Below, in pieces: positions 4,670 through 63,968 of a stretch of 64,000 nucleotides of DNA (positions within the stretch are counted from its first letter, which is position 1; every line of letters starts with the position of its first letter). The position numbers and the translations under genes were made by a program. Source of the DNA: a phage. Below the pieces are notes generated by a model, which made no database searches, was not told the DNA's origin, and was given only the letters and a program-made list of their open reading frames with translations. Where the stretch lies: the NCBI GenBank assembly GCA_012441205.1, contig GCA_012441205.1_4705.1. One strand, given 5' to 3'.

Positions 4670-6330
4670 GCGAACAAGAAAAAGAAGTCGTGACGAATCA
4701 GGAAGCCGTTGAGCGTTCAGAGTCGTCCGTTGAAACAACGATTCCGGCAAGTTCCGAGCCTGTTGGTTCCACACAGCAGGAAAGTAAAGACGAAGTAGTG
4801 GCTCCAGAAGCAACCCGTGAAGAAGAACCATCACATCCACCGCTGGTCGATTTCTCGAAGGCAACGATACGTTTCCAATGCGAAGACATTCGTCCTAAGA
4901 GTCCGAAGAAAACAAAACGTCAGCCGTTGGTGTTACCGCTGTATTCTCCACGTGTGCAGACAACGTATTACCGGGAATACATCAACGAAGCAATGGATAC
5001 CGTGCAAGCCATTGTCGCTCAACGCGGTAAACCGACAGACGAACAATTTGATAAATTCAGTAAAGCGGTGGTGCAATCGGTTGCTGATGGACAATATCAT
5101 CCGCGTGGCCCAGCTCACGATCGCGCCTTGGAACGTAAGGGCAGTCAGTGGACTAACGTACCCGTAGACTCATCGGGTGTTGGTCGCGTTATTCCTGGCA
5201 TTCCACAACCGAACCATATCCCTGATGATGTCGAAGCGCCGCTGACAGGAACCGATGCGATCTATTTTGCCATCCGTAATACGAAATCAGGTGCGCCTGC
5301 GGTAATGCCGTTATGGCATAGCGGTATTAAGCTGCAGTTTAATCCGCCGTCAAATGAACGTGTTGCAATTATGCACGAACGTATTGCACGCGATAAAATC
5401 CTGGGTGGACGTGATAGTACCGGTTTCCTGTTTTCAGCAACCTCGATTATCACCATGAAGCACGCTATCGAATTAGCATTAGAATGCTGCTACATGGCCA
5501 ACGTACCGAACCTGGATATCCAGCGTTTGAAAGACATTATTCCGGTTACCGATGTTCCAGCGTTATTGCTGAACGTGCTGGTAACCATGTACCCGTACGG
5601 ATATCCTTACGTACAGACCTGCTATCAGAATCCAGAAACCTGCGACTATCGTGTTGAAGATACCGTAAGCTTTGCAAAACTCTATCAAGTTGACAACAGC
5701 GCGATAACCAAACGTATGCGACAGATCATGACCGAAGGTCCGGTCATGACGGATGAACTTTTGCGTGAGTATGCAAACGAACTGGGTGAAACAAACTCCC
5801 GTACGCTGGATCTGTCCGACAACGGTTCTGTTATCATTGAACTTGAAGTACCGAAGATTTCACGTCAGATCGCCATGGGCGAACGCTGGTTAAGCGATAC
5901 CCTGGAAGATCTGCGTGATATTCTATCGCGTCCGTCAATGACCGAAGAAGAGCGTGATCGTGTTATTCGTGAACGTCAGTTCTATAGCTGGATGCGTCAG
6001 TATGATGCGTGGATCAAATCGATGCACGTGTCAGTAAACGGTACCATGCGTCGTGTAAGCGATGCAGATACGGCAACGGTATTAGCACAGCTGTCACGAG
6101 ACAGCGACCTTCGTGAACGTTATATTGACGGGTTGATGCAATTCATCGGTGATTCGACGATTGCGCTCGCAGCGATGCCTGCCTGGAAATGTCCGAAATG
6201 TAATGCCGATATTGCTGACAATCTGCGTGACCAGAAATACTACGATCTGATTGCTTTGGATGTACCCCAGCTTTTTTTTACCCTAAACTCCGTCCAATCT
6301 CTTCAGGAGGGGATGGACGCGGTATTCTAA
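4666..6330 (+). CDS. hypothetical protein with acidic N-terminal region (554 aa)
   Basis: long ORF; no motif recognised. Confidence 0.65.
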   Translation: MSEQEKEVVTNQEAVERSESSVETTIPASSEPVGSTQQESKDEVVAPEATREEEPSHPPLVDFSKATIRFQCEDIRPKSPKKTKRQPLVLPLYSPRVQTTYYREYINEAMDTVQAIVAQRGKPTDEQFDKFSKAVVQSVADGQYHPRGPAHDRALERKGSQWTNVPVDSSGVGRVIPGIPQPNHIPDDVEAPLTGTDAIYFAIRNTKSGAPAVMPLWHSGIKLQFNPPSNERVAIMHERIARDKILGGRDSTGFLFSATSIITMKHAIELALECCYMANVPNLDIQRLKDIIPVTDVPALLLNVLVTMYPYGYPYVQTCYQNPETCDYRVEDTVSFAKLYQVDNSAITKRMRQIMTEGPVMTDELLREYANELGETNSRTLDLSDNGSVIIELEVPKISRQIAMGERWLSDTLEDLRDILSRPSMTEEERDRVIRERQFYSWMRQYDAWIKSMHVSVNGTMRRVSDADTATVLAQLSRDSDLRERYIDGLMQFIGDSTIALAAMPAWKCPKCNADIADNLRDQKYYDLIALDVPQLFFTLNSVQSLQEGMDAVF

Positions 6331-6422
6331 TCGATCCGCGATACGGGTTACATGACGGACAACTTGTTCGTAATGATGAAAAAATCTGGGAATTGCTATT
6401 AGCCCGTAAAGGCGACGGTGGC

Positions 6423-6752
6423 ATGAAACTGAACATCGAAATGGGTATTGCGTACGATACCATGTTTGGCTTGTACGATCGTGTTAACGACTGGACGCCG
6501 TTGAAATGGGTTGCTCAGCATCCCGCTGAAGATCCCTGGGACAGATTGGGGATTAAACCCTTAATCGAAGATTATGTCCGATTCGGTATTAAAGAGTTCA
6601 TGACGCTGGATGCGTTTTTACAAGCACCGTATCCTTACGCGCAAACGGTACTCAAAATCGCACAAGACGAACTGCGGAAACGTAGTGCGGTACTGGACGA
6701 CGATGAGGACAAGTTACGACGAGAAGAAGAACGTTTACGAAACGGAAAATAA
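6423..6752 (+). CDS. hypothetical protein (about 109 aa)
   Basis: track ORF 6393..6752 begins at TTG; first ATG at 6423 has a GGTGG SD. Confidence 0.5.
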   Translation: MKLNIEMGIAYDTMFGLYDRVNDWTPLKWVAQHPAEDPWDRLGIKPLIEDYVRFGIKEFMTLDAFLQAPYPYAQTVLKIAQDELRKRSAVLDDDEDKLRREEERLRNGK

Positions 6753-11581: not shown

Positions 11582-12349
11582 CTATACTGCGATGATTGAG
11601 ATATCGGATGCCGGATGTGTGTTGCCATCAGGTGGTACGTACAGAAACACCCACAGATAAAACAGTAGCTTCTCTAACTTCAATTTAATTGAAGTTAGAT
11701 ATTGTTTACCTCCAACAAACGACGTTAACCAATTACCTGAAACAAGTTGCGATGCCCAGCCAGGCACTGCCCTACCGTTCTGGCTCATCACGTTACCTGC
11801 CCATCCCGGAAAACCAGGTCGGAAAATATATACTTGAATATGTGTTAAAGCGTTATCATTACCACCGCCAACAGCAACGTTACGACTCCCAGATGACGGG
11901 AAATATTCTTTTAAGAACAGAGGATCGGTTGCTAATAAAGATGCGGGCCAAGGGTTCGCGGATGCATCAACATCGAATTCGGTCCATCGCCATTTACGTC
12001 CCGTGTCGAACCATGTCGATGTACCACCACCCCTCACGGCAAGATTGCGCGCATCACGGACATTATAAATTGATTCGATGTTACGCCATCCACCTTTTGC
12101 AGCGTTTGCTGCATAGCAAACCGCATTACCACCATTCTTCTTCTCGTAAACGGTTCGTTTGATATGAACACGGTCGATGAACGCTTCACCGTATTTGTTG
12201 ACGAGCGTTTGTGCGATATCACGAAGATCGTGCATGTGAAAAGCGATGTCTTCGTTATGGAACCATGTTGTCTGGTTCCAGACGGTACCGTTTGGTTCGG
12301 CACACATCGATCGGATATTGTTGCGTTGATTAATCGCGATAAAACCCAT
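11582..12349 (-). CDS. fibre-associated protein, paralog B (about 255 aa)
   Basis: homologous to 10931..11572 along its length; start set at ATG 12349 with GAGG SD (track ORF extends to 12436). Confidence 0.55.
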   Translation of the reverse strand: MGFIAINQRNNIRSMCAEPNGTVWNQTTWFHNEDIAFHMHDLRDIAQTLVNKYGEAFIDRVHIKRTVYEKKNGGNAVCYAANAAKGGWRNIESIYNVRDARNLAVRGGGTSTWFDTGRKWRWTEFDVDASANPWPASLLATDPLFLKEYFPSSGSRNVAVGGGNDNALTHIQVYIFRPGFPGWAGNVMSQNGRAVPGWASQLVSGNWLTSFVGGKQYLTSIKLKLEKLLFYLWVFLYVPPDGNTHPASDISIIAV

Positions 12350-12404
12350 TGTATACCTCGTTCCTATTCTCAAAAAGGAAATTTCATACGATGACGCCAT
12401 AGCA

Positions 12405-12434
12405 GCTCCTCCTTCCCTTACGGGTTGGAGGAGC
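12405..12434 (-). terminator. hairpin element, second copy of the 7279..7312 element
   Basis: reverse complement nearly identical to 7281..7312; no strong U-tract. Confidence 0.4.
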
Positions 12435-12442
12435 ATACTTAA

Positions 12443-12949: not shown

Positions 12950-12997
12950 TAGATTTCCTTATGTGTTAACGGAAGTGACTTCCATAAGGATTGATGA

Positions 12998-15217
12998 TTA
13001 CTTTTTGAGCGCTTTAAGTTCTTCTTCCATCGCTTCCACTTTTGCCGTAAGCTTCTGTACTTGTTTGATTAATGGAACCACCAAACGTTCGTACATAACA
13101 CCTTCGGCGACGAGTCCGTTAGAAGAAACGATAGCGGGGTCATCTTCTTCGGTTGCATCACGCCAATGCACGTATTGTGGTGCGATCTCACCAACCTCTT
13201 CGGCAATCAACCCATACCAACCCCAATCCTTGTTGTCGGCTTCGCAGGTAGAACGATACCAGACAGGACGCATCTCCAATACTTTATCCGCTTGTTCATC
13301 CGTGATATTCTCGATATCTTTCTTATAGCGCCGCGACGACGTTGAACGAAACACATTGTTGATCCCAGCAGTAGGACTGATATACATATTAGCCCCGCTG
13401 GTTGTAGTGCTAATGTCCCATACCGCAAATCCGCCGTTACTCCCATTTCTCACGACCAACGTATTGGCAATAATATCCAGGTTATTGTTGTAACCGGTTA
13501 ACTGGTTTTCGGTGACAAAATCGGATAAGTTAACGGAGTAGTTCTTGCTGTTATAACAACGACGCCATCCTGGGCTGTTGGTGCTGCCATTATAGTTGTC
13601 GTAGCTATAAATGAACTCGGAGTTGGTTTTCGCACCACTGACGGAAGACGTGGTTGCGGTGGTAACACGGATAGTGTAGTTCGTCATCCCGAAGCTAACG
13701 ACCTCGATAACCGCACCAGCCAGAGGAATAATACCACATTTGGTTTCACTGTCTGGGATGTATGCGCTATCGGCAGCAGCGAAGGAGCAACGTGCGACCC
13801 AGGCACGGGTATTGAATGCACCTTGGTTCTGTAATAACGTAATAAACGATGAGGTCGTAATCGAGCTGTTATTATCACCTGTGATCAACCAGCCGGTTGG
13901 ACATGCGGTAGCACCAACGTTTTTCGCTGTTAGCGTGATGTTCTTCGATCCGTCGAAGGCTACGCCGCTGATGGTACGTGCAGTCTGTAGCTTCGTCGCC
14001 GTTGCCGCGTTCCCTGATGTGTTCTGGTTGCCTGTTGTATTCACACCCGGGATACTATCCTTAGATGTGTAGATCTGTGCCCATTCCGACCATTTCGCAT
14101 CGGTTGAATCACGACGTGAACGTAGGTAAGCTGGAGCGTGTGCACCCGAGGTACCTGACCATCCAATGAGGATTTCACCTTCGCCGACCGATGAAGCGCC
14201 TTTAAGATGAACAACGTTACCGTAGGCTGTAGGGTATCCGTTATTGTACGCTTCATACATCTGGATACCCGTATTGCTGCCCTGGGTCGCATTAGCTAAA
14301 GCGGTAACCCGTCCCTTGGAAGCGAGCACGTTAATGCTAAAGCTAATATCGGTTGTACCGTCAAAGGCGACCCCATTAATCCTCCGCGCTGTTTGGAGTT
14401 TCGTGGCAGTAGCCGCATTACCAGAGGTACTCTGATTGCCTGCTTTGTTCACACCTGGTAAATCAATGTTGGCGGTTCCATCAAAGGACACGCCCCCTAT
14501 GGTTCTCGCCGTCTGAAGTTTTGTTGCTGAACCAGCGTTTCCGGAAGTGCTTTGATTACCCGTCGCGTTGACACCTGGTAGGTTAATGCTAGCAGAACCA
14601 TCAAAAGAAACTCCACCGATCGTAATAGCTGTTCGCAACTTCGTGGCTGTCGCAGCGTTACCCGTCGTATTCTGATTACCAGCTGCATTGACGCCAGGTA
14701 ATGCGATATCAGCTGTGCCATCGAACGCGACACCTCCGATTTTACGGGCGGTTTGTAGCTTGGTTGCTGTAGCAGCATTACCGCTGGTATTTTGCGTACC
14801 GGCTTTATTTACACCAGGAAGATCGATGTTAGCAGAACCATCGAAGCTGACGCCACCTATCGTTCTTGCAGTAGCAAGTTTAGCGGCTGTAGCAGCGACG
14901 TTACCGACTTTTAACCATTCTCCCCATGGACCATCCACACCGTTCCATGATGCCGTTAAACTGCGCACGTATATGTTTCCTGTACGTACTGTGTAACGTT
15001 GTGTTCCACCGAATTGACCGGCTGGGAGCACTTCGATGTAACCTACAGCATTTGCTTCAGGGAAATTGTGGGCAGCATCGGCATTCGTTGATGTTTGTTT
15101 GGACCAAATACCCACAGACGCTTCAACCGGACCGTAGGTATCCAGATTTGCATCGGTGGGGAGCTGTCCTCGAAAACGTCGGAATAATGAAGCCGATAAC
15201 CCCAACGTTGTTTGCAT
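12998..15217 (-). CDS. long tail fibre, distal segment with tandem fibre repeats and C-terminal intramolecular-chaperone (S74-like) domain (739 aa from first ATG)
   Basis: about 40-aa repeats GNAATATKLQTARTIGGVSFDGSANIDLPGVN; C-terminal YKKDIENITDEQADKVLEMRPVWY...GLIAEEVGEIAPQYV; frame stays open upstream of the ATG to 15325. Confidence 0.8.
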   Translation of the reverse strand: MQTTLGLSASLFRRFRGQLPTDANLDTYGPVEASVGIWSKQTSTNADAAHNFPEANAVGYIEVLPAGQFGGTQRYTVRTGNIYVRSLTASWNGVDGPWGEWLKVGNVAATAAKLATARTIGGVSFDGSANIDLPGVNKAGTQNTSGNAATATKLQTARKIGGVAFDGTADIALPGVNAAGNQNTTGNAATATKLRTAITIGGVSFDGSASINLPGVNATGNQSTSGNAGSATKLQTARTIGGVSFDGTANIDLPGVNKAGNQSTSGNAATATKLQTARRINGVAFDGTTDISFSINVLASKGRVTALANATQGSNTGIQMYEAYNNGYPTAYGNVVHLKGASSVGEGEILIGWSGTSGAHAPAYLRSRRDSTDAKWSEWAQIYTSKDSIPGVNTTGNQNTSGNAATATKLQTARTISGVAFDGSKNITLTAKNVGATACPTGWLITGDNNSSITTSSFITLLQNQGAFNTRAWVARCSFAAADSAYIPDSETKCGIIPLAGAVIEVVSFGMTNYTIRVTTATTSSVSGAKTNSEFIYSYDNYNGSTNSPGWRRCYNSKNYSVNLSDFVTENQLTGYNNNLDIIANTLVVRNGSNGGFAVWDISTTTSGANMYISPTAGINNVFRSTSSRRYKKDIENITDEQADKVLEMRPVWYRSTCEADNKDWGWYGLIAEEVGEIAPQYVHWRDATEEDDPAIVSSNGLVAEGVMYERLVVPLIKQVQKLTAKVEAMEEELKALKK
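13936..14908 (-). repeat. in-frame coding repeats of the tail fibre (about 120-nt unit, about 5 tandem copies at 14344..14908 plus one distal copy at 13936..14047)
   Basis: repeats visible in both DNA and translation; copies are diverged. Confidence 0.6.
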
Positions 15218-17248: not shown

Positions 17249-19003
17249 TTATGCTGCTACATATCCAGGCCAACGTTCTCTTGGCCAGTTTGTTGCGCCC
17301 TGTCCAACGTTGTCCTTACCAGAAATTACATTACTTACGTCCCAACCACTAAGATCCTGGTTAAATGCGGTGTTGTTACGCATCATGAGGTCGATATTAC
17401 GTAATGATTGGGTATTCCAGCCGGAAATGTCTTGGTTGAATGCCGTGTTGTAAGCAAACATGTTAACAACGTTTTGTAATTTTGAAGTGTTCCAGCCGCT
17501 AATATCGCCATTGAACTGCATGCTCGAGAACATACTGCTAGCATCGATAAGACTATCTGTTTTCCAGTTAACCAGCTTGTTTTCATCAAGTGCGTTGCAA
17601 CTACTGAACATGTAACTCATGTTGTTAACTTTGGATACATCCCATTTATCTAACCCGTTACCAACGAACTCGTAACAAGCTTGGAACATCCAGCTCATGT
17701 CGGTAACCTGGCTCACATTCCATTTGCTAAAGTCGAGGTTGAGTTTTGCGCATCCGGAGAAAGTTTTATACATACTGGTGATACGACTAACATCCCATTC
17801 TTGAATGTTAGGATCATTAAGTATAGATAAGAATTGGAACAATCCGTCTAACGACGTCCATTTCTCTGGAATACGGTTTGGTACTGTACGGAGCGATGAA
17901 AGGTTATTGGTTGACGGAGAGCGGAACATACCGTTATCCCAATTTACGATTTCCGTAATGTTGTACCCACGGATCGTTTGGCGTCCATTACCATTATACA
18001 CAGACCCTGTTGCAGTTATTGTATATTCGTTTGTATCAGCATACGTATGTTCAGCCTGTGTAGGCCACTCACCTATTACATCCCTATTCCCATCACCCCA
18101 ATCGATGGAAATATTTGTCCAACCATCAAGATCTAGGGTAACGGTCCCGCCATTGGTCTTCAGGATGTATTTACCTGCATTGTCGGTATAATAACAAACG
18201 ATCATCGCACCGTACAGGTTACCAATTTGCCAATCATCCTTTTGAGTTACCGCGATATGTGCTGTGCCACGTTGTAGGAAAAGAACCGTACGGTTCTCGT
18301 CAGTCTGTAATGTGGTTAATGCTTGAGCCTTATCATCGTCGGTAATTTCACCAGCTTCCACTAAAGCACTTAACATTCTTTCGAAGTATTCGATGGGTAA
18401 TTGGTGTCCTACAGACATATCAACTGATGGAACAGCGAGATCATCCAATGCGGCGGCAGTTGCAAGCACTAATGATCCATTGGTGGTGTCTGTTTCTTGG
18501 AGGTAATGCAGTCCCGTAATCTGGTACGCTTGAATGATTGTAATCAGATCCAGCGTATCGTTAATGACCTGTACTTGTAAATGTCCAGACCAAACATAGC
18601 TGCTTTCAGCAATCGGTAATTCGACCGACTGAATACCCGATGTTTCAAAACTGATCTTCTTATTAAGATCGGCTTCCAGGAAATCAACCGCGAGGTCGAA
18701 ATTTATACCGTACTTTTCAGCGATGGAATCTATGATGTTCCTGAAAGCAACATCGGTACTTACGATGAATCGTAAAGGGATTCCTGTGAACGCATTAGCA
18801 ATATCTCGACGAACATACGTAAGTGATTGTTCGAAGAAATAGGGACTGTTATCTCCAGGTTTGATGGTTACCTGACACATTTCAGGATGTTCAGCTGGGA
18901 TGAACGATTCAAATTTAACATCGGATTCCTTCAACGAAAGCATGTTCTTCCGGTTTACCAGCGCCAGAAGATCGGCTTTCCATCCAGGATAAACAGTAGA
19001 CAT
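17249..19003 (-). CDS. receptor-binding protein: N-terminal anchor domain, PKD-like motif and C-terminal BspA/DUF285-type repeats (about 584 aa)
   Basis: anchor alignment; ISIDWGDGN...HTYADTNEYTI; repeats WDVSxVTxMxxMFxxCxxFNxDISxW; start set at ATG 19003. Confidence 0.7.
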   Translation of the reverse strand: MSTVYPGWKADLLALVNRKNMLSLKESDVKFESFIPAEHPEMCQVTIKPGDNSPYFFEQSLTYVRRDIANAFTGIPLRFIVSTDVAFRNIIDSIAEKYGINFDLAVDFLEADLNKKISFETSGIQSVELPIAESSYVWSGHLQVQVINDTLDLITIIQAYQITGLHYLQETDTTNGSLVLATAAALDDLAVPSVDMSVGHQLPIEYFERMLSALVEAGEITDDDKAQALTTLQTDENRTVLFLQRGTAHIAVTQKDDWQIGNLYGAMIVCYYTDNAGKYILKTNGGTVTLDLDGWTNISIDWGDGNRDVIGEWPTQAEHTYADTNEYTITATGSVYNGNGRQTIRGYNITEIVNWDNGMFRSPSTNNLSSLRTVPNRIPEKWTSLDGLFQFLSILNDPNIQEWDVSRITSMYKTFSGCAKLNLDFSKWNVSQVTDMSWMFQACYEFVGNGLDKWDVSKVNNMSYMFSSCNALDENKLVNWKTDSLIDASSMFSSMQFNGDISGWNTSKLQNVVNMFAYNTAFNQDISGWNTQSLRNIDLMMRNNTAFNQDLSGWDVSNVISGKDNVGQGATNWPRERWPGYVAA

Positions 19004-19041
19004 AAGCACTCCAATCATGGGGCGGTAACCGCCCCCATCAG

Positions 19042-39404: not shown

Positions 39405-39687
39405 GTAACACCTCATCAAGATTATCACTTACGCCAGGCGGTACCACAATACCGGTACGAATCACAGCAGCAACTTCCTGCATGCCCTTACCCTTCAACG
39501 CATAGGTTTCATGTACCACATTACGTCGAGTCGTTAATCCAACAAATTTACATACAACCATGTTGTTTTCTGAAAGATAAGCGGTGTCGAGTTCACCGTG
39601 CAACAATTCTTTTTCTTTGGTATCAATACCTAATAACGCAATTTGATAAGCAGAAAGTTTCCAATAACGCATAATCGTCCTATTCAT
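39379..39687 (-). CDS. hypothetical protein (102 aa)
   Basis: ORF; start overlaps the dam stop. Confidence 0.45.
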   Translation of the reverse strand: MNRTIMRYWKLSAYQIALLGIDTKEKELLHGELDTAYLSENNMVVCKFVGLTTRRNVVHETYALKGKGMQEVAAVIRTGIVVPPGVSDNLDEVLHGTRKTAR

Positions 39688-40507
39688 AAACTATCAAATA
39701 TTCTGAAACCAAGTTTCTTGTTTCTACTTTTGCCGAAATCGTTCTTCGTACAGTTACAGGGTACAATTTTGTCGCCGAACTATAAATCTCTTCAGTCAAC
39801 GCACAAGCACTGTTGCTAATGATTGTAGGAATTCCCCGCGAGCGCAAGTTGTCAGCCTTTTCTGCAAGATAACGATGATCGTCTAATGTAAACCCCTCTT
39901 GAGTATAGCCCGTAAACGATGCGGTGGGGGAAATGGGAATATAAGGAGGGTCGCAATAAACGACGTCACCCGGAACCACCTTTTCAAGATGCTTCTGGAA
40001 CCCACCACTTACAATTTCTACCCCCCCCCCCTCGACGAAGGCAGCCTGAAGATGGTTCGCTGCCAGACGCAATTCCTGTTTCGGGAAATAGACGGTCTTA
40101 TACCGCCCATGCGCAACATTAAATAAACCATCACGATTATAACGACATAAGCCATTGAAACCGTAACGGTTTAAATACATGAAGCAAACTGCGCGTTCCC
40201 ACGGATCTTCAGCGCGGTTAAAACGTTCACGTATCTCGTAGTAGCTTCTGACGTCGGTAGGATCCGTTTGAAAAAGACGTTCCACTTCTTCGATGAAAGA
40301 TTCTGGACGCGCTAGCAACGCAGACCATACTGAGAGAATATCCTCATTCGCATCACCTATCGAATACGCTGGGTACTTAAGAGCAAGCGTAACAGCGCCG
40401 GAACCAACGAATGGTTCAACAAGACGCTTTCCTTTAGGTAACACTTTTTCAATCTCAGGGATAAGCCTGGTTTTGTTCCCAAGCCATTTAAGAAATGTTC
40501 TGCTCAT
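39680..40507 (-). CDS. dam: Dam-type DNA N6-adenine methyltransferase (275 aa)
   Basis: WLGNKTRL, SAM-binding EPFVGSGAV, catalytic DPPY. Confidence 0.85.
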   Translation of the reverse strand: MSRTFLKWLGNKTRLIPEIEKVLPKGKRLVEPFVGSGAVTLALKYPAYSIGDANEDILSVWSALLARPESFIEEVERLFQTDPTDVRSYYEIRERFNRAEDPWERAVCFMYLNRYGFNGLCRYNRDGLFNVAHGRYKTVYFPKQELRLAANHLQAAFVEGGGVEIVSGGFQKHLEKVVPGDVVYCDPPYIPISPTASFTGYTQEGFTLDDHRYLAEKADNLRSRGIPTIISNSACALTEEIYSSATKLYPVTVRRTISAKVETRNLVSEYLIVYE

Positions 40508-40922
40508 CGATTGGCGTTCCGATAATGTTGATGACTATTTCCGTTCGAACCGGATTGGTCAGTACGGCCTGCATGCATTCAAGCATTGTTGGGTTATCCG
40601 TAACCACCACATCGGCGTAACACAACGGATGGCTTTCGAACGCTTCGGTATCACTTACTAACAGAACACCCATCACATTTACGTATTGCGGTATGCGACC
40701 ACGAATGCGTTGCCACATGTCTTGAGTAAGGTCCTCGCTTTCTAATGCAACCACAACAACAGGACTGATATTTACCGGAAAACGCGGATGCACCGTACGA
40801 CGAAATGTTATCCAGTTTTCGATGTGGGATAATGCAAGTTCGAGAGAACAGCATTTTGGAGAAATCTGTATGTTTATTTGTTGAATCAATGAAAGGGGGT
40901 TTTGTACAGTCGCTTCAGCCAT
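40488..40922 (-). CDS. hypothetical protein (144 aa)
   Basis: ORF. Confidence 0.5.
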   Translation of the reverse strand: MAEATVQNPLSLIQQINIQISPKCCSLELALSHIENWITFRRTVHPRFPVNISPVVVVALESEDLTQDMWQRIRGRIPQYVNVMGVLLVSDTEAFESHPLCYADVVVTDNPTMLECMQAVLTNPVRTEIVINIIGTPIDEQNIS

Positions 40923-44790: not shown

Positions 44791-45418
44791 TGATACCTTC
44801 TATTAGTTGTACAGCAACTTCTTTTTCGGTGCTATAAAAGAACTTGCGATGGAACTGAACAAGAAGTTTTTCGAATTTACATTGAACGATCTTTTTGCGT
44901 TCGATATGACCCAGGGAGAGCAAAGCACCCATGCAACGTACCGCTTGTTCGAGAACTTGTTTCGCGGTATCGTGATCGTCCGGTAACGGTAAATCTTCCT
45001 CATCGTCTTTAGCGATAAGGCGTCTGATGATGTTATCGATACGTATCTCATCACCGTTAATAAAAGCCCCCTTCTCCCAGTCATCGAATCGTTGATGGAT
45101 TCGACGTTGTAAGTTGGCCCTGTCTTCCATTAACTCTTTCAACTGGCTTTCTAAATGGGATACGGTACGGCGGTCGGTTTCAGTGAAGTTTTCCGATTCT
45201 TTGTACCACCAATCATTACGCGATAGTAAATCGTTAACGCGCGAAATCGTCCGACGACACTCACTAACAAGCCCGTCACCATTCGGTAGCTCTGTACCAA
45301 AATAGCATTTGTATTTATAACGCATAACACGGATTAAACGTTTCGCTAGAAAACCTTGCCTTTCCAGTTTCTTCTTCAGTTGTGTGTATTTCTCTTCTTT
45401 TGTTTCCATTAATTCCAT
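44777..45418 (-). CDS. hypothetical protein (213 aa), in AT-rich island
   Basis: ORF. Confidence 0.5.
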   Translation of the reverse strand: MELMETKEEKYTQLKKKLERQGFLAKRLIRVMRYKYKCYFGTELPNGDGLVSECRRTISRVNDLLSRNDWWYKESENFTETDRRTVSHLESQLKELMEDRANLQRRIHQRFDDWEKGAFINGDEIRIDNIIRRLIAKDDEEDLPLPDDHDTAKQVLEQAVRCMGALLSLGHIERKKIVQCKFEKLLVQFHRKFFYSTEKEVAVQLIEGINEVK

Positions 45419-45807
45419 GATGTTGTACCTCGTTCAGCAATCAGGAGAGTCGTGGTTGTGCTTTTCACTAATCTATTAAAGTCTTGATATATCCGCCTGA
45501 GGGATGATTTCAAATCACAATAACGGCTGAAATAAACCTTCAAGTCATCTTTTGTCACAGTCTCCGTATTTATTTTCGTAGAAACACCGAGATCGATAAA
45601 CTCTTTTCTTAATTGGGATAATTCATCAAGAAGTCGATGATGGCTTAGATAAATAACAGATTTATCGGATAACAACTCGCCGGTTATCCGGCTCTGGCGT
45701 TCATCGAAATATTGGAGCCGCCATTCAATTCGCTTACGTAATTTATCAAGTAAATCAACAAAAGCGGTATAGCTGTTAACGGCTAGGTTAACTTGACTCG
45801 TTATCAT
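45409..45807 (-). CDS. hypothetical protein (132 aa), in AT-rich island
   Basis: ORF. Confidence 0.45.
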   Translation of the reverse strand: MITSQVNLAVNSYTAFVDLLDKLRKRIEWRLQYFDERQSRITGELLSDKSVIYLSHHRLLDELSQLRKEFIDLGVSTKINTETVTKDDLKVYFSRYCDLKSSLRRIYQDFNRLVKSTTTTLLIAERGTTSWN

Positions 45808-48372: not shown

Positions 48373-49257
48373 TCAATAACGACCGTAGCGTTCCTCGAGC
48401 CGTTTTGGTTTTCTCAGAAGGCTATCTTTAAGTGGTACGACGTCGATATCAACACTCTCTGAGTAATAGCCGTTAGAACTACCATACCAACGGATAACAA
48501 CACAACCCTTTGCAGTACGGATATGGTAAAATGTCCATTGTATACGTTCGCTGTAATAACCGTAGTTATCGGTTCTTTCCTCGGTTCTTTCTTCAGCACT
48601 GAGTATCTTTTCACCGATGATATCATTAATATCGCCGTCAATGTCTTCAAGATACACCTCTTCGCAGCAATCCTGCTGATGACAGAATTCGACAACGTTT
48701 CCATCACCACGATAGAAAAGAAGGGCGATACCGTTTCGTAATTGCTCGCTCGTTACATCAGACACACAATGCAAACTTTTATCGTCGGTAATCACCAAGA
48801 CGTTGTTGATTACATGTCCGGCAAGCGCTCCGATCTTATTTACCGTGATAATCGGACGAACCGGTTCAGATTGAACGATAGGAATACGGACACAACCAAT
48901 TAAAGCCATCCGTCCTTTCTTTGGTCTAACCGCAAGGTAAGGTGATTTTCTTGGGTGGTTATGCAGACGTATTTCTAATTCGTCAAATTTAATCCCGTAT
49001 ATACCTAAGAAACGATCGAACAACCGATGAAACTCATCTGTTGCTTCTTCCAACGTTATGGTGTCTACCGTGAGTTTATGTCCCCTGAACACCCGGGTTA
49101 TATCGATAACGTCCAGTGTTTTAAAATGTATTTCCGTAAGGGGGTGATTTGTATTTTCCAGGTAAGTAATTGTTCTTTGAACCACGATTTTAGGTTGCGC
49201 ACCTTTAAAACGTTTCAGGTATTTAACACGATAGCGTGTATGATCTGATGTTAACAT
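48373..49257 (-). CDS. hypothetical protein (about 294 aa)
   Basis: track ORF start lies inside an upstream terminator hairpin; ATG at 49257 has GGAGAGGAG SD. Confidence 0.55.
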   Translation of the reverse strand: MLTSDHTRYRVKYLKRFKGAQPKIVVQRTITYLENTNHPLTEIHFKTLDVIDITRVFRGHKLTVDTITLEEATDEFHRLFDRFLGIYGIKFDELEIRLHNHPRKSPYLAVRPKKGRMALIGCVRIPIVQSEPVRPIITVNKIGALAGHVINNVLVITDDKSLHCVSDVTSEQLRNGIALLFYRGDGNVVEFCHQQDCCEEVYLEDIDGDINDIIGEKILSAEERTEERTDNYGYYSERIQWTFYHIRTAKGCVVIRWYGSSNGYYSESVDIDVVPLKDSLLRKPKRLEERYGRY

Positions 49258-49319
49258 TTTAATCTCCTCTCCCGACTTCAGAGAATTCTTAAAATCCGTT
49301 AGTTTTGATAGATAGGGTA

Positions 49320-49353
49320 AGACGGCATAAAAGCCTCCCATTACGGGAGGCTT
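49320..49353 (-). terminator. intrinsic terminator after CDS 49365..49634
   Basis: AAGCCTCCC-GTAAT-GGGAGGCTT followed by TTTTAT on minus strand. Confidence 0.5.
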
Positions 49354-49364
49354 CATTAATCAGC

Positions 49365-49634
49365 TTATTTCACGTTAGAATCGAGAACCTCACGAACGGT
49401 TTTATCCGTACAACCACGAGCGATGTATGCATTAAGATCATCACGTAATTTACGCATCGTTGTTTTATCCGCATCAGAAACATCTGACTTGGTAAGACGG
49501 AATGCGATTGCATCGCGAATTTTATTCAACGTTGCTGGGTTATTACGCTGTTCTGCAAATACCGCTTTGATGAACTTATCGCTATCTTTCGAAGCAATAG
49601 CAGCATCAAGAATCTCAATATGCTTTTCAGACAT
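49365..49634 (-). CDS. hypothetical protein (89 aa)
   Basis: ORF. Confidence 0.5.
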   Translation of the reverse strand: MSEKHIEILDAAIASKDSDKFIKAVFAEQRNNPATLNKIRDAIAFRLTKSDVSDADKTTMRKLRDDLNAYIARGCTDKTVREVLDSNVK

Positions 49635-57511: not shown

Positions 57512-57590
57512 GGATTTGTGTTGGTCCGTTTCGATACCCATCGTATTTTATGGATTGTCGAATGACGTCATTTTAAGGGACATCCCCGGC

Positions 57591-57626
57591 CTCCTCCCCA
57601 GGAAAGGTGTGGGGAGGAGTTTTTAT
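57591..57626 (+). terminator. hairpin plus T-run on plus strand, in the divergent intergenic region
   Basis: CTCCTCCCCA-ggaaaggtg-TGGGGAGGAG then TTTTTA. Confidence 0.35.
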
Positions 57627-57654
57627 CATACATTCTATTAAATCGAGCGCGATT

Positions 57655-59736
57655 ATGTTGGATAGAATCAATCGTTTAATGAACCGAATAGCGGTTAAAA
57701 ATCAGAGTAACAATACCGTGCATATCGGGGGTATCGATGCCTGGCGTCTTTCAGATGACATTCAGCGAATATGGGGTACCTCCCGATTTATGAAACACAT
57801 GTTTCGTAATTTCTCTTCCAGTGGTCTCAGTCTCCACAACTTTTACCTTCCCGATTTCGTTTATATTCTCGAAACGATCATCGAGGCAAAGAATACTCGC
57901 AGTAATAAACGCATGCTGAAACACCTTATTGAGGTACTGCTGCAGGAAACCTGGTTGCAAAATACCACAATCGAGCAACCTGCAATCCTCGATAAAGCAC
58001 GCATGAACAAAATGCTAACGCTCTCCCTGTTCGATTATCAAGATGAGTTTATCGACATCTATAACCGTAACGTACCTAAATATCGACTGAAAGGATACGT
58101 GTGTGCGATGGGTGCGGGTGCCGGTAAAACAATCACCGCGTTGGCTTTAAGCGCCGCAATGAACGTCGACGTATTTGTGGTCTGCTGTCCTAAGAACACC
58201 ATGCGTTCAGCATGGCAATCCGATGTAAACAAAGCCATCGTTGACCCCGCAACAGAAACCGCATTCTGGTCAGATACAATGCCACCGTCACAGCTGCAGA
58301 AAAGCGATAAGTATTATTTTCTGCATTACGAGTCGATGGGTTTATTAAACGATGTAATGATCAAGCATAAACGCACCGCGAAGCGCGTGTTGATCGTGGT
58401 TGATGAAAGCCATAACTTCAACGACAAGAACAGCCAACGTTCCCAACGACTGGTTGATCTCGTACAGACGATGCGTCAGACCATGAATGCGGATGTGCAT
58501 GTCTTGTTTATGTCGGGTACGCCCGTTAAACAGATGGGTTCTGAGATGATCCCCTGTTTAGGTTGTATTGACCCGATGTTCCAAGGACAGGTGGTCGATA
58601 GCTTCAAAGCAATTTACGGTTTAACCAGCAGCCGCGCTAACGATATCCTCAGACATCGTCTTGGGTTCATGATGCATGTTGTACCTAAAGAGGCTTATCG
58701 TAAAACCCGGCCGGAAGTTCAGGACGTTTACGTGAAGCTCCCTAACGGTAGCGATTATACCATCTCGAGTATCCGCGACGACATGGCGATATTCGTACGC
58801 GATCGGGCGAAGTATTACAAGGATAACTGGGGGCATTACAGAAAGATTTTTGATGACGCCTTGGACTACTATCGTAAGACTATTCGTACCGATGGTGAAC
58901 GTAAAGAGCTATCTCGATACGAATCGATTGTTGCTCGTTTCCAGAAAGGTTACGACCCCGTCAGAGACAAAGAAGATGCGATGTTCTGCAACGCGTTTGA
59001 AAAACGTTCTATTATGCCGGTTCTTCCTTCTGATTTAAGGGTTGCTTTCAAAGACGCCAAGAGCGTCATCAAGTACGTTGGGTTGAAAATTCAGGGTGAA
59101 GCGTTGGCGCGTGTTCTAGGTGCAGCCCGCATTCGGTGTCATGTCGACATGGTGGAGTACATCGACTTCGAAGGGTACATCAATAACGCTGAAGCCAAGG
59201 TGTTGATCTTCACGTCGTACGTTCAGGTGGTTGAGCGTGTCGACAACATGCTTCGCGATGCCGGTTTCTTACCGGAACCCATTTACGGGAAGACCAACAA
59301 GAACATCAACCAGATACTTGCTCGCTTACGCGATGATCCTGACAGCGGTCCCGCTATCGCAACATTTGATAGCTTAGCCGAAGGGGTTCCGATGTTGATG
59401 TGTAACGTGGGTCTCTTCTTGAACAACCCATGGCGTTCATCCGATGAAATCCAAGCCATCAGCCGTCTCGATCGTGTAGGGCAAACGCAACCTGTTCGGA
59501 TTTATCGTTTCATGTTAGATACAGGAAGCGAGGGTAACGTTTCTACACGTAGCCACGAAATCATGGAGTTAAGTCGACAGCTTGTTGAAGAAATCACAGG
59601 CGTCAAATACGTGGTGAACAAGCAAGATGCTGTTAACTTGCAGGAAACGTTGGCGATGGAAGGATACGATCAATACGTTACCGTAAACACCACGGAATAC
59701 GATATTAAACCACGACCTGCGTTCTTGGAATGGTGA
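57655..59736 (+). CDS. SF2 helicase (DESH-box, about 693 aa)
   Basis: Walker A GAGAGKT, Walker B VVDESH, motif III MSGTP, motif VI QAISRLDRVGQ; track ORF begins at GTG 57607 inside the hairpin, ATG 57655 preferred. Confidence 0.7.
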   Translation: MLDRINRLMNRIAVKNQSNNTVHIGGIDAWRLSDDIQRIWGTSRFMKHMFRNFSSSGLSLHNFYLPDFVYILETIIEAKNTRSNKRMLKHLIEVLLQETWLQNTTIEQPAILDKARMNKMLTLSLFDYQDEFIDIYNRNVPKYRLKGYVCAMGAGAGKTITALALSAAMNVDVFVVCCPKNTMRSAWQSDVNKAIVDPATETAFWSDTMPPSQLQKSDKYYFLHYESMGLLNDVMIKHKRTAKRVLIVVDESHNFNDKNSQRSQRLVDLVQTMRQTMNADVHVLFMSGTPVKQMGSEMIPCLGCIDPMFQGQVVDSFKAIYGLTSSRANDILRHRLGFMMHVVPKEAYRKTRPEVQDVYVKLPNGSDYTISSIRDDMAIFVRDRAKYYKDNWGHYRKIFDDALDYYRKTIRTDGERKELSRYESIVARFQKGYDPVRDKEDAMFCNAFEKRSIMPVLPSDLRVAFKDAKSVIKYVGLKIQGEALARVLGAARIRCHVDMVEYIDFEGYINNAEAKVLIFTSYVQVVERVDNMLRDAGFLPEPIYGKTNKNINQILARLRDDPDSGPAIATFDSLAEGVPMLMCNVGLFLNNPWRSSDEIQAISRLDRVGQTQPVRIYRFMLDTGSEGNVSTRSHEIMELSRQLVEEITGVKYVVNKQDAVNLQETLAMEGYDQYVTVNTTEYDIKPRPAFLEW

Positions 59737-59740
59737 TTAA

Positions 59741-59785
59741 GAAGCTCTGCCTGATGTCAGGCAGAGCTTTATGCTGTATTTGTTG
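59741..59785 (+). terminator. intrinsic terminator after the helicase gene
   Basis: 12-bp perfect palindrome AGCTCTGCCTGA/TCAGGCAGAGCT followed by TTATGCTGTATTTGTTG. Confidence 0.6.
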
Positions 59786-59836
59786 CAAGATCGTATGACG
59801 TATATGCGTCGTAATTATTAAAATAGGGCAAAATAC

Positions 59837-61291
59837 ATGAAACTCAAACAAAGCTGGAAAGACGAACTTCTCGCGTTAGTAAACAGCAAAAACAGTTTAC
59901 AACTGACATTAGACGATGTAAAATTTGAACTAACGGCACCGGTAAGCGAAGTGCCTGGAACGGTCGTTGTTACAATCAAACCGAACGATAATAGTCGCTA
60001 CTTTAACGAGCAGTCTCTGACCTACATCCGTCGAGACATCGCTAAAAACTTCACCGGGATCCCGTTACGGGTTATCGTTAAGCAAGATACCGCTGTAAGG
60101 GATATCATCAATACGATTGCTGAACGTTACGGATTGGTATTTGACACAGCCGTCGACTTCCTCGAATCCGAGCTGAATAAACAAATTACGTTCGCAGACA
60201 CCGGTATTAAAGACATTACGGTTCCGGTTGCAAACACGTCTTATGTTTGGGCGGGTAATCTTCAGTTCAATATTGCTAACGATACGTTAAGCTTGATTAC
60301 TATCATCAAGAAAACCGATCTTACGAATCTGGTTTATCTGGATGGTGTTGAAGCTGACACATCTGGTTCGTTACTATTAGCAACCGCAGCACTTGTTAAC
60401 GAACACGTAAATGAACCGATGGTTGAAAACGAAGATATCGTTAATGAATTTATTAACGTTCTTAATACTCTAGCCAAATATGGTGACATAACCGGCGATG
60501 AATTAGATGCCGCCTTACAAGCGTACGATGAAGCAGAAAACAGGAATAAAACCACGGTAATAACTCTTGGTGATATCCAGTGTGTTGCAACAGAAAAAGA
60601 CGATTGGGAAATTGGACGTTTACGCGGTCAGATGGTTCTCGCGCTCAAATCCGATAAATACCCGGAGCCCGATAACACGTTCAGGTTGTTTACGAATGGT
60701 GGTGACGTATCGCTAACGTTAAACACAATGAAAGATATAAGTATCGATTGGGGTGATGGGAATAAAGTAACGTTGGATGCTGAAGAAAGATACGCGCACC
60801 ACACATACGCCGACAATAACCAGTACCAAATCGAAATTGTGTCTCGTACGGACCCAGATGTGCTGCGACCAAATTATATTTCTGGGAGTGAGATAACCGA
60901 AGTAATTCACTGGGCTACTACTTCAACAATAGCTCTGAATTTTGTTGGATGCGATAATTTAGCGACTGTTCCAGATGAGATCCCAACTTCGTGGACAACG
61001 TTGGACAGCATGTTTGAAAGTTGTACGAATTTGAATGATCCGTCTATCTCTAACTGGAATACAAGTAACATCACATCAATGAATGGTATGTTCGGCGGAT
61101 GCACTAAATTTAACCAACCTTTAGCTGCCTGGGATGTCAGCTCAGTAACTGACATTGGTGGTATGTTTAACGGATGCAACAGTTTTAACCAAGATTTAAG
61201 TGGGTGGCGATTACCGTCAGGAGTAACCCACGACAATTACGATAGTGGTGCTTTCTCGTGGCAGACGGAACATAAACCGACGTTCCAGTAA
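59837..61291 (+). CDS. receptor-binding protein: N-terminal anchor domain, PKD-like motif and C-terminal BspA/DUF285-type repeats (484 aa)
   Basis: anchor domain aligns with 17249..19003 and others; ISIDWGDGNKVT...HHTYADNNQYQI; repeats NWNTSNITSMNGMFGGCTKFNQPLAAWDVSSVTDIGGMF. Confidence 0.7.
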   Translation: MKLKQSWKDELLALVNSKNSLQLTLDDVKFELTAPVSEVPGTVVVTIKPNDNSRYFNEQSLTYIRRDIAKNFTGIPLRVIVKQDTAVRDIINTIAERYGLVFDTAVDFLESELNKQITFADTGIKDITVPVANTSYVWAGNLQFNIANDTLSLITIIKKTDLTNLVYLDGVEADTSGSLLLATAALVNEHVNEPMVENEDIVNEFINVLNTLAKYGDITGDELDAALQAYDEAENRNKTTVITLGDIQCVATEKDDWEIGRLRGQMVLALKSDKYPEPDNTFRLFTNGGDVSLTLNTMKDISIDWGDGNKVTLDAEERYAHHTYADNNQYQIEIVSRTDPDVLRPNYISGSEITEVIHWATTSTIALNFVGCDNLATVPDEIPTSWTTLDSMFESCTNLNDPSISNWNTSNITSMNGMFGGCTKFNQPLAAWDVSSVTDIGGMFNGCNSFNQDLSGWRLPSGVTHDNYDSGAFSWQTEHKPTFQ

Positions 61292-61352
61292 AAAAAAAAA
61301 TAGTTAGCATATCTTCCTCCCTACCCATAACGGGCGGGGAGGAAGGTTTTAT
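61292..61352. terminator. bidirectional terminator between convergent genes
   Basis: A-run after the plus-gene stop, 9-bp stem CTTCCTCCC/GGGAGGAAG, then GTTTTA. Confidence 0.5.
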
Positions 61353-61363
61353 GGCGTTATGAC

Positions 61364-61702
61364 TTAGAACCAGAGTTCTTTCATGAAGTAGGCTTCCGTA
61401 TCGTAGATAAGCCACCCATCGGGGATTTCTAAAGGATCGTCTTCGGTTAAGGTGAGCATGTGCAGGGCGAACGCACGCTTAATATCTTCCAACAGCTTAT
61501 CATCACCGTAACCTTCGGGTAGTTTACGGTCAGCCAGCTGAGTTTGTTTATAGACATCGCGGAACGCTTCAGGATTATGTTTATCCATCGGGAATTGTTC
61601 AGCAGCCTGAACCATCGAAAGCGTCCAGCTTACAACATTGTAACGCTCACCGTTAATTTCACTGAACTGATCATCGATTAAACAGATTTGTTGTATATTC
61701 AT
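61364..61702 (-). CDS. hypothetical protein (112 aa)
   Basis: ORF. Confidence 0.5.
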   Translation of the reverse strand: MNIQQICLIDDQFSEINGERYNVVSWTLSMVQAAEQFPMDKHNPEAFRDVYKQTQLADRKLPEGYGDDKLLEDIKRAFALHMLTLTEDDPLEIPDGWLIYDTEAYFMKELWF

Positions 61703-62592
61703 TCATTTTCTCCATTCTTATCTTGGTCGCAATCACACTCTTCGACGTCTTTCTTACTTAAACGTAAGACACCGAGTGCGGCATGCTTGAGTTCTTGCAA
61801 CGCGCTTTTCAGCTGACCTTCTTCATCGAAATCAAAATACTTCTCGTTGTAGCTTAATGCTGGAATCATATTTACGAGAGGCTCGATGGCAGGCATCAAC
61901 ATTTCGATGACGACCTTAGGATCAACAAAGCGATCGAACCCTTCAGGAAGTTTGCTCGCTACAACCTTATCGTTCTTGATGAAGAATTTGTTCTTGAACA
62001 AATCGTCAAGAATAGCGTTCTCTTCATCCGTACGTTTTGCGTGGGGACGATCGATCATCTGAACGAAAACACCACTCAACGCTTCAGGCAAAGTCGGATT
62101 TTCACGAAGAGAAGTTCCAGCCGGAATTTCAATATCGATCTTTGCCCACTCAACAACCTGGTGATCTCGTGTGTAGATAACGTCTACTTCCCACGCCAGG
62201 CCGTCCGGACTTTCCACGGTGTAACGTGTTTTCGCTTGACCTTCCGGAGCCATACGCTCAATGGCATCAAACATCTCGACTGGAATTTCTACCTCGCTTT
62301 CCGTTGCATCACCTGGACCACGATACACCTTCGTGGTCATGATGTATTTCGGTTCTTCGTTATCGATCTGTATAGCTCGTGCTCGTACTTGACCTTTCAC
62401 ACCACCAACGGCCGTGTTATCAAACAACCATTGATGTTGCACCATATGTTCAATTTTTGATGCTACTTGACGAAGACGTTCAACACCATCCTCAGCCAGT
62501 TTGCCAAAGAAGACCAACTCACGTTCCTGCTGTGTCTCACCACTTAACATCATTAAATTGGCGATTTGTTTCACGCCTCTTACTTTTGACAT
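61699..62592 (-). CDS. hypothetical protein (297 aa)
   Basis: ORF with GGAG SD; ATGA overlap downstream. Confidence 0.55.
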   Translation of the reverse strand: MSKVRGVKQIANLMMLSGETQQERELVFFGKLAEDGVERLRQVASKIEHMVQHQWLFDNTAVGGVKGQVRARAIQIDNEEPKYIMTTKVYRGPGDATESEVEIPVEMFDAIERMAPEGQAKTRYTVESPDGLAWEVDVIYTRDHQVVEWAKIDIEIPAGTSLRENPTLPEALSGVFVQMIDRPHAKRTDEENAILDDLFKNKFFIKNDKVVASKLPEGFDRFVDPKVVIEMLMPAIEPLVNMIPALSYNEKYFDFDEEGQLKSALQELKHAALGVLRLSKKDVEECDCDQDKNGENE

Positions 62593-62607
62593 ACATGCTC
62601 CGGTTAT

Positions 62608-62629
62608 AAGGGCCTGCTTCGAGGCCCTT
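62608..62629. other. GC-rich hairpin in intergenic region
   Basis: AAGGGCCT-gcttcg-AGGCCCTT. Confidence 0.3.
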
Positions 62630-62660
62630 CATTGATTTTTGATTCCACCAAACGCTATCG

Positions 62661-63968
62661 TTACAATTCAAAATCTTCATCGATAACGCGCTGGGTAAGC
62701 ACTTTGTCGCTGAAGAACTCCACCTTGCGCTGATGGTATTTACGATGTGCTTCTATCGAAGTACATACCAGATACCAGAACGTTGGTGTCATTCCTTCAA
62801 ACTTCCCTTTCAGCTGACGTAGCCGTCCCAACACCTGAATGTTACCGGTTCGTGACCCCATCGCTAACGTCATGAACGTCATCACCAAGTCAGGAAGGTC
62901 GATGCCCGTACCTGCCGATTTCACGGTTGTAACGCTAATATCGTTATCCAACAAGACCATGAAATCTTCTTCAGCAGTATAAGGACCAATCTCTAACTCA
63001 GGAATACGTTCACTGAGATAATGCGACAACGACTTACACATATCGACGGTTGCACAATACACCAGCATCTTCATACCTTCCTGATACTGGTTCATGAAAC
63101 CTTTGATTATAACGGTATAGATGAAGTTAAAGTACGCGAGTTTGAGTTGCTTGTTCTTCATGATAGACTGTTCGAATATCGTGTGAGAATAAGAACCCCC
63201 AAAGCCTTTGTATCTGACTTTATCTGTACTGCGTAGTCGATACGTCACGGCATTTACCGCAATGTATTTCTTGTATTCGCATTTCGCATAACGTGCTTCT
63301 TTCGGATACATCAAATACAACATCCGCTCGATGAACGGATCGTCGGACACCGCCGTTGCTGACAGATAGATGATTTCCGGAATATTCGCGTAGCACTTCA
63401 CTTTGAACAAGAAATGCAAAGCTTCGTGACATTCGTCATGGATTAACAACCCAATGCCTGTTTTCTCCCAGAACTCGACTGGATGGAAAACATACGGTGC
63501 GACACAGTTGTTCTTTTCATAATCGGTTATGTATCTCTGAAACATGTTCAGTGAGAATAACGCAATTTTGAAATCCAGCTCACCTTGTTCCACCAACATC
63601 TGGAATTCCAGCATGCTGTAACGAGGAATGTCGGGATGCGGTGGGTCAGATTGGGCTGTACCGCGTATCTCGATAACATCACCTGGTTCCATACCGAAGA
63701 AACTTAGCAACGAGCTGCGCCATCCAGGCATGTATCTCGGTGACAGAATAATGCCCGTCCGTACACCACGTCGGAAAGTGATCTCCTGCGACATGGCTGT
63801 TTTACCACTGCCCGTGCCTGCGGTGTTTAGGCTCATTCTGAAGGGGGTATCCTTACCCCCGTCCATGTACTCCAACCATTCTTGCTGATCTTGACGCCAT
63901 GGAAACTTCCATTTCTTTACGAACTCCACTTCTTTACCTGGTACCGGATCGTGATAGACGATTTCCAA
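62661..63968 (-). CDS. SF2 helicase (DECH-box, 435 aa)
   Basis: Walker A AGTGSGKT, Walker B HDECH, motif III SAT, motif VI QVLGRLRQ. Confidence 0.7.
   Translation of the reverse strand: MEIVYHDPVPGKEVEFVKKWKFPWRQDQQEWLEYMDGGKDTPFRMSLNTAGTGSGKTAMSQEITFRRGVRTGIILSPRYMPGWRSSLLSFFGMEPGDVIEIRGTAQSDPPHPDIPRYSMLEFQMLVEQGELDFKIALFSLNMFQRYITDYEKNNCVAPYVFHPVEFWEKTGIGLLIHDECHEALHFLFKVKCYANIPEIIYLSATAVSDDPFIERMLYLMYPKEARYAKCEYKKYIAVNAVTYRLRSTDKVRYKGFGGSYSHTIFEQSIMKNKQLKLAYFNFIYTVIIKGFMNQYQEGMKMLVYCATVDMCKSLSHYLSERIPELEIGPYTAEEDFMVLLDNDISVTTVKSAGTGIDLPDLVMTFMTLAMGSRTGNIQVLGRLRQLKGKFEGMTPTFWYLVCTSIEAHRKYHQRKVEFFSDKVLTQRVIDEDFEL

Follow-up and report, generated by a model that had tools for sequence, protein, structure and literature searches.

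Cassette exchange behind a conserved DUF7941 domain in the gp161 ortholog of a Goslar-like jumbo phage

The DNA analyzed here, herein referred to as the window, is a stretch of 64,000 nucleotides from a phage (contig GCA_012441205.1_4705.1, NCBI GenBank assembly GCA_012441205.1). Its DNA is ~95% identical to that of Escherichia phage vB_EcoM_Goslar, and the gene order is the same in both. Goslar is a nucleus-forming jumbo phage, transcribed by the phage's own polymerases. This study concerns the plus-strand gene at 59837..61291, which starts with ATG and encodes a protein of 484 amino acids (aa), together with the hairpins on both sides of it. The gene is the ortholog of Goslar gp161 (HOV27_gp161, YP_009820846.1). 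At its locus, the ortholog of the SNF2/DEAD-type helicase gene gp160 is found on one side and the convergent orthologs of gp162 and gp163 on the other. The helicase gene (57655..59736, plus strand, with an alternative GTG start at 57607) was assigned by the Pfam domains ResIII, SNF2-rel_dom, and Helicase_C and by the Goslar annotation. The gp162 ortholog (61364..61702, minus strand) encodes 112 aa and belongs to the early expression class. An earlier description made from the letters of the window, the sequence-only reading, presented the gene as an isolated receptor-binding gene insulated by terminators, possibly recently acquired or differentially expressed.

The N-terminal part of the protein matches DUF7941 (Pfam: PF25613) at aa 4–189, with 89.4 bits against a cut-off of 27 and over positions 5–195 of the 276 in the profile. 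The fold search matched this domain to phiKZ gp127, a protein of the peripheral baseplate. The arrangement of the family was also found here, namely an N-terminal globular fold like that of phiKZ gp127 followed by a flexible linker. Two PHROGs families, 1037 and 2935, match the protein, and the N-terminal domain is labeled there as "virion structural protein." The C-terminal part matches DUF285, the BspA-type leucine-rich repeat (LRR) family, at aa 387–461 (90 bits against a Pfam cut-off of 25), and an LRR solenoid fold accompanies this match. The AlphaFold2 model of the 484-aa protein has a mean pLDDT of 85. Beyond the linker, it includes a helical segment (~aa 179–232), a beta-rich region (~aa 237–360), and a confidently predicted LRR (~aa 361–484). 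The beta-rich region contains a WGDGN...HTY motif. The PKD_4 profile scored below its Pfam cut-off for this stretch (16 bits against 27, E = 0.013), and the stretch is PKD-like only, on the basis of the motif and the beta strands. A sequence search of PDB with the whole protein yielded nothing relevant. The gene is a new allele of a DUF7941 family already described in a 2026 preprint (bioRxiv 10.64898/2026.04.21.720040).

Codons 1–183 (59837..60385, plus strand) encode the globular domain and the linker, which ends with GSLLLAT. They are followed by an exchanged C-terminal cassette of codons ~184–474 (60386..61258). The DNA identity to Goslar is 96.8% through position 60384 and 93.8% beginning with 61259, with 60385–61258 being unalignable. 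The right recombination boundary is marked by the final 10 codons with the TAA stop codon (61259..61291), with blastn similarity to Goslar resuming at 61259. At the protein level, the identity to Goslar gp161 is 96.7% for aa 1–183 and 39.7% for aa 184–484. An IMG/VR scan gave two loci, one of them Goslar, and relatives were obtained by exact-protein look-ups; the variability was analyzed for 57 orthologs from public assemblies. The mean pairwise identity of the N-terminal part across these orthologs is 95.6% (minimum 86%), and that of the C-terminal part ranges from 36 to 100%. The N-terminal part has a ratio of nonsynonymous to synonymous substitution rates (dN/dS) of 0.06–0.085 and is under purifying selection. 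When the C-terminal part is divided into four segments, 5, 6, 11, and 6 classes are found at 75% identity, and these classes occur in varied combinations. The switch point is located directly after GSLLLAT in every allele. The right-hand breakpoints vary between relatives, lying at 60725, 60991, and 61258.

Rapid divergence in place, under diversifying selection, could in principle also have produced a C-terminal part so different from that of Goslar, and the dN/dS values relative to L005, a relative that shares the allele of the window, would fit such a process (0.32 for the C-terminal part vs. 0.08 for the N-terminal part). We consider it very unlikely, however, since the nucleotide similarity to Goslar, 97% before the junction, becomes undetectable over only a few bases and is regained equally abruptly, and since the breakpoints differ among relatives whose segment classes are reshuffled. 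Additionally, the cassette is less diverged from that of L005 at synonymous sites than the backbone is. The cassettes are 96.9% identical with a dS of 0.066, whereas the backbones are 88–94% identical and the dS of the N-terminal part is 0.23; the cassette is therefore younger than the backbone around it. Together, the sharp identity breaks, the reshuffled classes, and the young cassette argue for cassette exchange. Both the identity of the gene and the exchange of its cassette are well supported.

The proposal that the gene was recently acquired thus holds for a part of it. The distal two-thirds of the protein are the recently acquired part, whereas the gene as a whole is not. In 8 of 8 Goslar-like relatives examined, it lies between the same helicase gene and the same convergent genes, and its N-terminal part is under the purifying selection described above. 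The patchy presence and own composition expected of a moron were not found in these relatives or in the unremarkable GC content. The gene is an old resident of this locus in the Goslar-like lineage. A foreign origin was also considered from the composition and rejected, the GC content being 0.40–0.44 across the whole gene without anomaly. Deep conservation of the position next to the helicase was rejected as well: Serratia phage PCH45 and Erwinia phage EarlPhillipIV differ, having their best DUF7941 matches inside structural-gene arrays. The matches in these distant chimalliviruses indicate that the helicase-adjacent position is specific to the Goslar lineage. The exact protein is encoded on contigs of ~238 kb in NCBI assemblies from E. 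coli, both O157 and other strains. Many assemblies of enterobacterial isolates contain Goslar-like genomes of 235–248 kb, suggesting that these are carried along with the isolates.

The window has eight stretches without an alignment to Goslar, and a partial replacement that keeps the N-terminus was found in only two of them, the gene at 59837..61291 and the tail-fibre gene at 12998..15217 (minus strand). The C-terminal tip of that tail fibre lies in a region without similarity to Goslar (12987..13948), and so does much of the neighboring gene at 11582..12436 (11625..12345); the corresponding Goslar locus contains genes for a P1 S-like fibre and for fibre assembly. Three further stretches (39673..40522, 45408..45803, and 48373..49365) are gene-sized, hold minus-strand genes, and show no DNA similarity to the syntenic Goslar regions. 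Finally, the gene at 17249..19018 (minus strand, in the tail-fibre cluster) is a whole-gene insertion relative to Goslar (17262..19006), where it is absent. Its product of 589 aa is a second protein with DUF7941, PKD-like, and DUF285 parts, and the corresponding 584-aa family is present in many Goslar-like contigs. Gene conversion from this paralog was rejected as a source of the cassette: the C-terminal parts are 38.6% identical, no closer than that of Goslar gp161. The cluster of tail-fibre and DUF7941 genes occupies 8.3–23.5 kb of the window, and the gene, correctly described as far from the main fibre cluster, is ~36 kb away from it.

A terminator-type hairpin with the tail TTTATGCTGT is found on the plus strand at 59741..59777, 5 nt past the stop codon of the helicase gene. 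Its stem has 12 Watson–Crick pairs (59742–59753 with 59758–59769) and a closing G.U pair, and its loop is 4 nt long. The 54 nt from 59737 to 59790 fold with −25.3 kcal/mol (z = −4.8), and none of 200 shuffled sequences folds as well. The 64 kb contain three perfect hairpin-type inverted repeats of at least 13 nt, this one among them. In relatives, a compensatory change was found in the stem (CTCTG/CAGAG to CCCTG/CAGGG). The Goslar annotators also marked a terminator at this position. The spacer before the gene includes the block CGTATGACGTATATGCGTCGTA (59792..59813, plus strand), which is kept in 8 relatives and has two TATG motifs (59794–59797 and 59803–59806). Late promoters of phiKZ have the sequence TATG, in which G is position +1 (PMC4666361). 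By analogy, the two motifs in the spacer are candidates for late promoters of the phage non-virion RNA polymerase. A further TATG, in the tail of the hairpin (59770–59773), was set aside as late promoter of the gene: Goslar has CATG there, yet its gp161 is expressed at levels like those of gp160.

On the other side of the gene, a CT-rich/GA-rich hairpin, CTTCCTCCC...GGGAGGAAG followed by TTTTATGGCG, is located at 61311..61357. This is a phiKZ-type terminator element for the plus-strand gene, its stem region (61311–61347) lying between the stop codon of the gene and that of the convergent gene. The region 61288–61356 folds with −29.3 kcal/mol (z = −5.4) on the plus strand, and the hairpin on the minus strand with −25.0 kcal/mol (z = −4.0). 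An open reading frame with a perfect 12-bp hairpin upstream and a strong hairpin downstream is thus confirmed. The downstream hairpin lies 17 nt past the stop codon of the convergent gene (61364..61702) and may serve this minus-strand gene too. The sequence-only reading had termed this element a bidirectional terminator with an A-run. It does fold on both strands, but the A11 run (61290..61300), which overlaps the stop codon and is kept in relatives, is 10 nt away from the stem and is therefore not a canonical U-tract for minus-strand termination. Both flanking hairpins are kept in 8 relatives. In L008 and L012, two of the relatives, 15 nt in the inner part of the downstream hairpin (equivalent to 61320..61334) are reverse-complemented with the structure preserved.

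Terminators of phiKZ were previously mapped with long-read transcripts, which gave 61 terminators in which TTAT comes after a stem-loop (Putzeys et al., 2024; PMC10914365). Their motif is BCCYCCCCHWWDGGGRRGGBYTTATKYYGT (PMC10914365). Both elements that flank the gene have this composition, with TTAT(K)YYG directly behind a GC-rich stem-loop. The upstream tail CTTTATGCTGT (59767–59777) is an exact match to BYTTATKYYGT, the tail of the phiKZ motif (PMC10914365), but its stem, AAGCTCTGCCTG, does not belong to the CCYCCCC type. The downstream stem is of the CCYCCCC/GGGRRGG type, and its tail matches the phiKZ motif with one mismatch (PMC10914365). In the window, TTATGCYG was found 15 times against 4.2 expected (3.6-fold), a number reached in none of 100 shuffles. 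Eight copies stand behind GC-rich intergenic hairpins (at 1090, 7313, 25417, 32623, 38736, 49323, 55664, and 59769); together with two further variants, there are ~ten such elements in 64 kb. By analogy with phiKZ, the flanking hairpins are best described as the usual intrinsic terminator elements of this phage family, a genome punctuation. The sequence comparison thus suggests that the phiKZ terminator motif is also used in a chimallivirus of E. coli, and we give this part of the finding little weight.

The tail TTATGCYG contains TATG, the core of the phiKZ late promoter; by analogy, a coupled stop/start role is conceivable. Another terminator-like hairpin, CCTCCTCCCC...GGGGAGGAG followed by TTTTTATC, is found on the plus strand at 57590..57627, within the divergent region that immediately precedes the helicase gene. 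There is no upstream plus-strand gene for it to terminate, and Goslar has an annotated terminator there. It may be a 5'-leader attenuator like those of phiKZ. A generic promoter and terminator scan gave counts no higher than in shuffled sequences and called neither of the hairpins around the gene because of their short T-runs (TTTAT). Sigma-70 sites are not relevant to a phage with polymerases of its own. In Rfam, scanned with 57000–62800 and E-values up to 1, a chance miRNA match was the only hit.

Expression was considered with the gene-level RNA-seq read counts for Goslar at 30 min (Table S2 of 10.1101/2023.09.20.558163). The counts for gp160 and gp161 are near-equal, 1057–1309 and 1096–1319, respectively (10.1101/2023.09.20.558163). 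When formation of the phage nucleus is prevented by ChmA knockdown, both genes change by log2 ~−5, a ~32-fold drop, and the tail-fibre genes gp86, gp90, and gp92 fall into the same nucleus-dependent class as gp161 (10.1101/2023.09.20.558163). The neighbors on the opposite strand, gp159 and gp162–164, change by +0.3 to +1 (10.1101/2023.09.20.558163). The late class shared by gp160 and gp161 thus makes them a two-gene late island on the plus strand within early genes of the minus strand. Reads are ~1.45 times denser on gp161 than on gp160, which means that termination at the upstream hairpin is either leaky or followed by re-initiation. Goslar gp162 is estimated at ~127 copies per virion by mass spectrometry, yet its transcript belongs to the early, nucleus-independent class.

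These data bear on the view that the gene, insulated by its terminators, is a moron-like transcription unit that is autonomous, regulated separately, and expressed differently from its neighbors. Both hairpins are real, strong, and conserved, the spacer block with its two TATG motifs could be a promoter of the gene's own, and ~25% of the transcription units in phiKZ are single genes between a start and a stop site (PMC10914365). In Goslar, however, gp160 and gp161 have the near-equal counts and the shared response to the knockdown just described; the gene is fixed in position in 8 relatives and shows no compositional anomaly; and elements combining a hairpin with TTATGC are so frequent in the window that being flanked by them does not single out the gene. 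We therefore regard an autonomous unit as unlikely. The hairpins reported as insulating the gene are there, but the flanking is not special, and the claim of separate control or differential expression was not supported. The sequence-only reading had itself named a conserved position and co-transcription with the helicase as observations that would speak against it. The former was found in 8 of 8 relatives, and the latter is consistent with the read counts.

The Goslar genome encodes ten DUF7941 proteins including gp161, and three of them, gp86, gp92, and gp161, have additional carbohydrate-binding, glycoside hydrolase, or LRR domains (bioRxiv 10.64898/2026.04.21.720040). The Goslar paralog gp22 forms filaments, and a baseplate-anchored "DUF7941 fibre cloud" acting in host recognition was proposed (bioRxiv 10.64898/2026.04.21.720040). 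According to the model of that preprint, which uses AlphaFold predictions, the linker of one protomer docks on the N-terminal domain of the next (bioRxiv 10.64898/2026.04.21.720040). Mass spectrometry of Goslar virions detected gp161 with 27 peptides at 54% coverage, corresponding to an estimated 74–174 (~111) copies per virion, and gp86 and gp92 at ~5 copies each (bioRxiv 10.64898/2026.04.21.720040). By analogy with this ortholog, the copy of the phage studied here is presumably also present in the virion. The term "receptor-binding" is thereby borne out insofar as the ortholog is a virion protein of a family proposed for host recognition; receptor binding as such is still inferred.

The reading that we prefer, and consider rather probable, is that the gene encodes a late-expressed, chimallivirus-specific DUF7941 virion protein composed of a fixed docking module and an exchangeable host-binding head, and that it is flanked by standard terminators. 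The N-terminal globular domain with the linker (aa 1–183) would be the docking module and, following the Goslar preprint model, would insert the protein into head-to-tail DUF7941 filaments at the peripheral baseplate. Beyond the linker, the helical segment, the PKD-like beta domain, and the BspA-type LRR would be displayed outward, binding a host surface structure. The docking module and the GSLLLAT junction are common to all alleles, so that homologous recombination can swap the distal part, which would be replaced as a cassette in this way. We infer the filament incorporation, the outward display, the host binding, and the effect on host range for gp161. The combination of a conserved part for virion anchoring with a distal part that varies and recombines was found, which is the pattern of a host-range determinant, the role suspected for this gene.

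Several points weigh against this reading. Proteins are no less common than glycans as ligands of LRRs, and the target could thus be intracellular. Host genus and allele are not correlated in public assemblies: the same 90% allele cluster was also found in Salmonella assemblies, and the Goslar-type allele is found in E. coli, Shigella, and Salmonella. In the literature on DUF285 phage proteins and gp161, no experiment showing receptor binding was found. The filament incorporation of gp161 derives from the AlphaFold predictions of the preprint. The DUF7941 proteins were not resolved in the Goslar cryo-electron microscopy maps, and the virion preparation also held material of the nucleus shell and PhuZ (bioRxiv 10.64898/2026.04.21.720040).

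Some of these points would suit an effector that is packaged in the virion and then injected or otherwise intracellular, whose LRR would recognize a protein of the host, for example a defence factor, and whose C-terminal variability would reflect an arms race inside the cell. Many virion proteins of Goslar are indeed injected (bioRxiv 10.64898/2026.04.21.720040), and the alleles do not track the host genus. Such a role appears improbable to us, however, because the N-terminal domain matches a protein modeled outside the phiKZ peripheral baseplate, because paralogs of the protein, which are encoded in the tail-fibre cluster, possess carbohydrate-binding and glycoside hydrolase domains, and because a PKD-like domain with a BspA-type LRR is a typical architecture of surface adhesins.

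With the exchangeable host-binding head retained as the preferred reading, the cassette polymorphism provides independent, population-level support for selection on the distal part of gp161 as in host-recognition proteins, on the basis of the fixed anchor, the sharp junction, and the reshuffled distal segments. This bears on host recognition by nucleus-forming jumbo phages, for which the 2026 Goslar structure lacks a resolved peripheral baseplate; a part played by the DUF7941 proteins with added domains was proposed there. Codon 183 offers a defined junction for exchanging heads in phage engineering, and near-isogenic backbones with natural cassettes permit a direct swap experiment. A broader proposal, which we put forward tentatively and consider doubtful, is that the DUF7941 N-terminal domain with GSLLLAT forms a universal plug, acting both in the assembly of micron-long baseplate filaments and as a homology arm for recombination, and that gp161, which is the most abundant of the DUF7941 proteins with added domains (~110 copies per virion), supplies with its PKD-like/LRR cassette the main naturally exchangeable host-range determinant of Goslar-like jumbo phages. 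If this were true, the allele classes in public assemblies would be a ready-made specificity library.

Among known systems, Goslar gp161 has the same locus, domain order, and flanking hairpins as the gene of the window, but it belongs to a different C-terminal allele class and is 483 rather than 484 aa long. The phiKZ proteins gp127 and gp126 (PHIKZ127, PDB: 9xqd) are DUF7941 proteins of the outer peripheral baseplate with 18–22% identity to the protein of the window; the modeled chain of gp127 has 150 aa, with no LRR part in the structure. The BspA-type LRR/DUF285 surface proteins of bacteria (PF03382; e.g., BACOVA_04585 of Bacteroides ovatus, PDB: 4fs7) have a lipoprotein or secretion signal, whereas the LRR of the window is fused to a phage virion anchoring domain. 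In Citrobacter phage Tr1 (L014, Stephanstirmvirinae), the product of the gene at 5671..6726 is 351 aa long and combines an Ig-like N-terminus with a PKD/DUF285 C-terminal part; the gene lies directly behind those for a tail fibre and for a spike-like protein that degrades colanic acid. With such a protein closing the tail-fibre cluster of Tr1, the same head module occurs in tail-fibre clusters of unrelated phages. Modular fibres, such as gp37/gp38 of T-even phages and the S-type fibres of P1 and Mu, combine a conserved anchor at the N-terminus with an exchangeable tip at the C-terminus. The protein studied here resembles them, as does the tail fibre at 12998..15217 of the window, in the conserved anchor, the sharp recombination junction, and the mosaic distal part. 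In contrast to modular fibres, it shows no homology to them and no predicted trimeric fibre fold, and its proposed attachment would be through head-to-tail DUF7941 filaments with ~110 copies per virion, compared with 3–18 copies of modular fibres at fixed sites of the baseplate.

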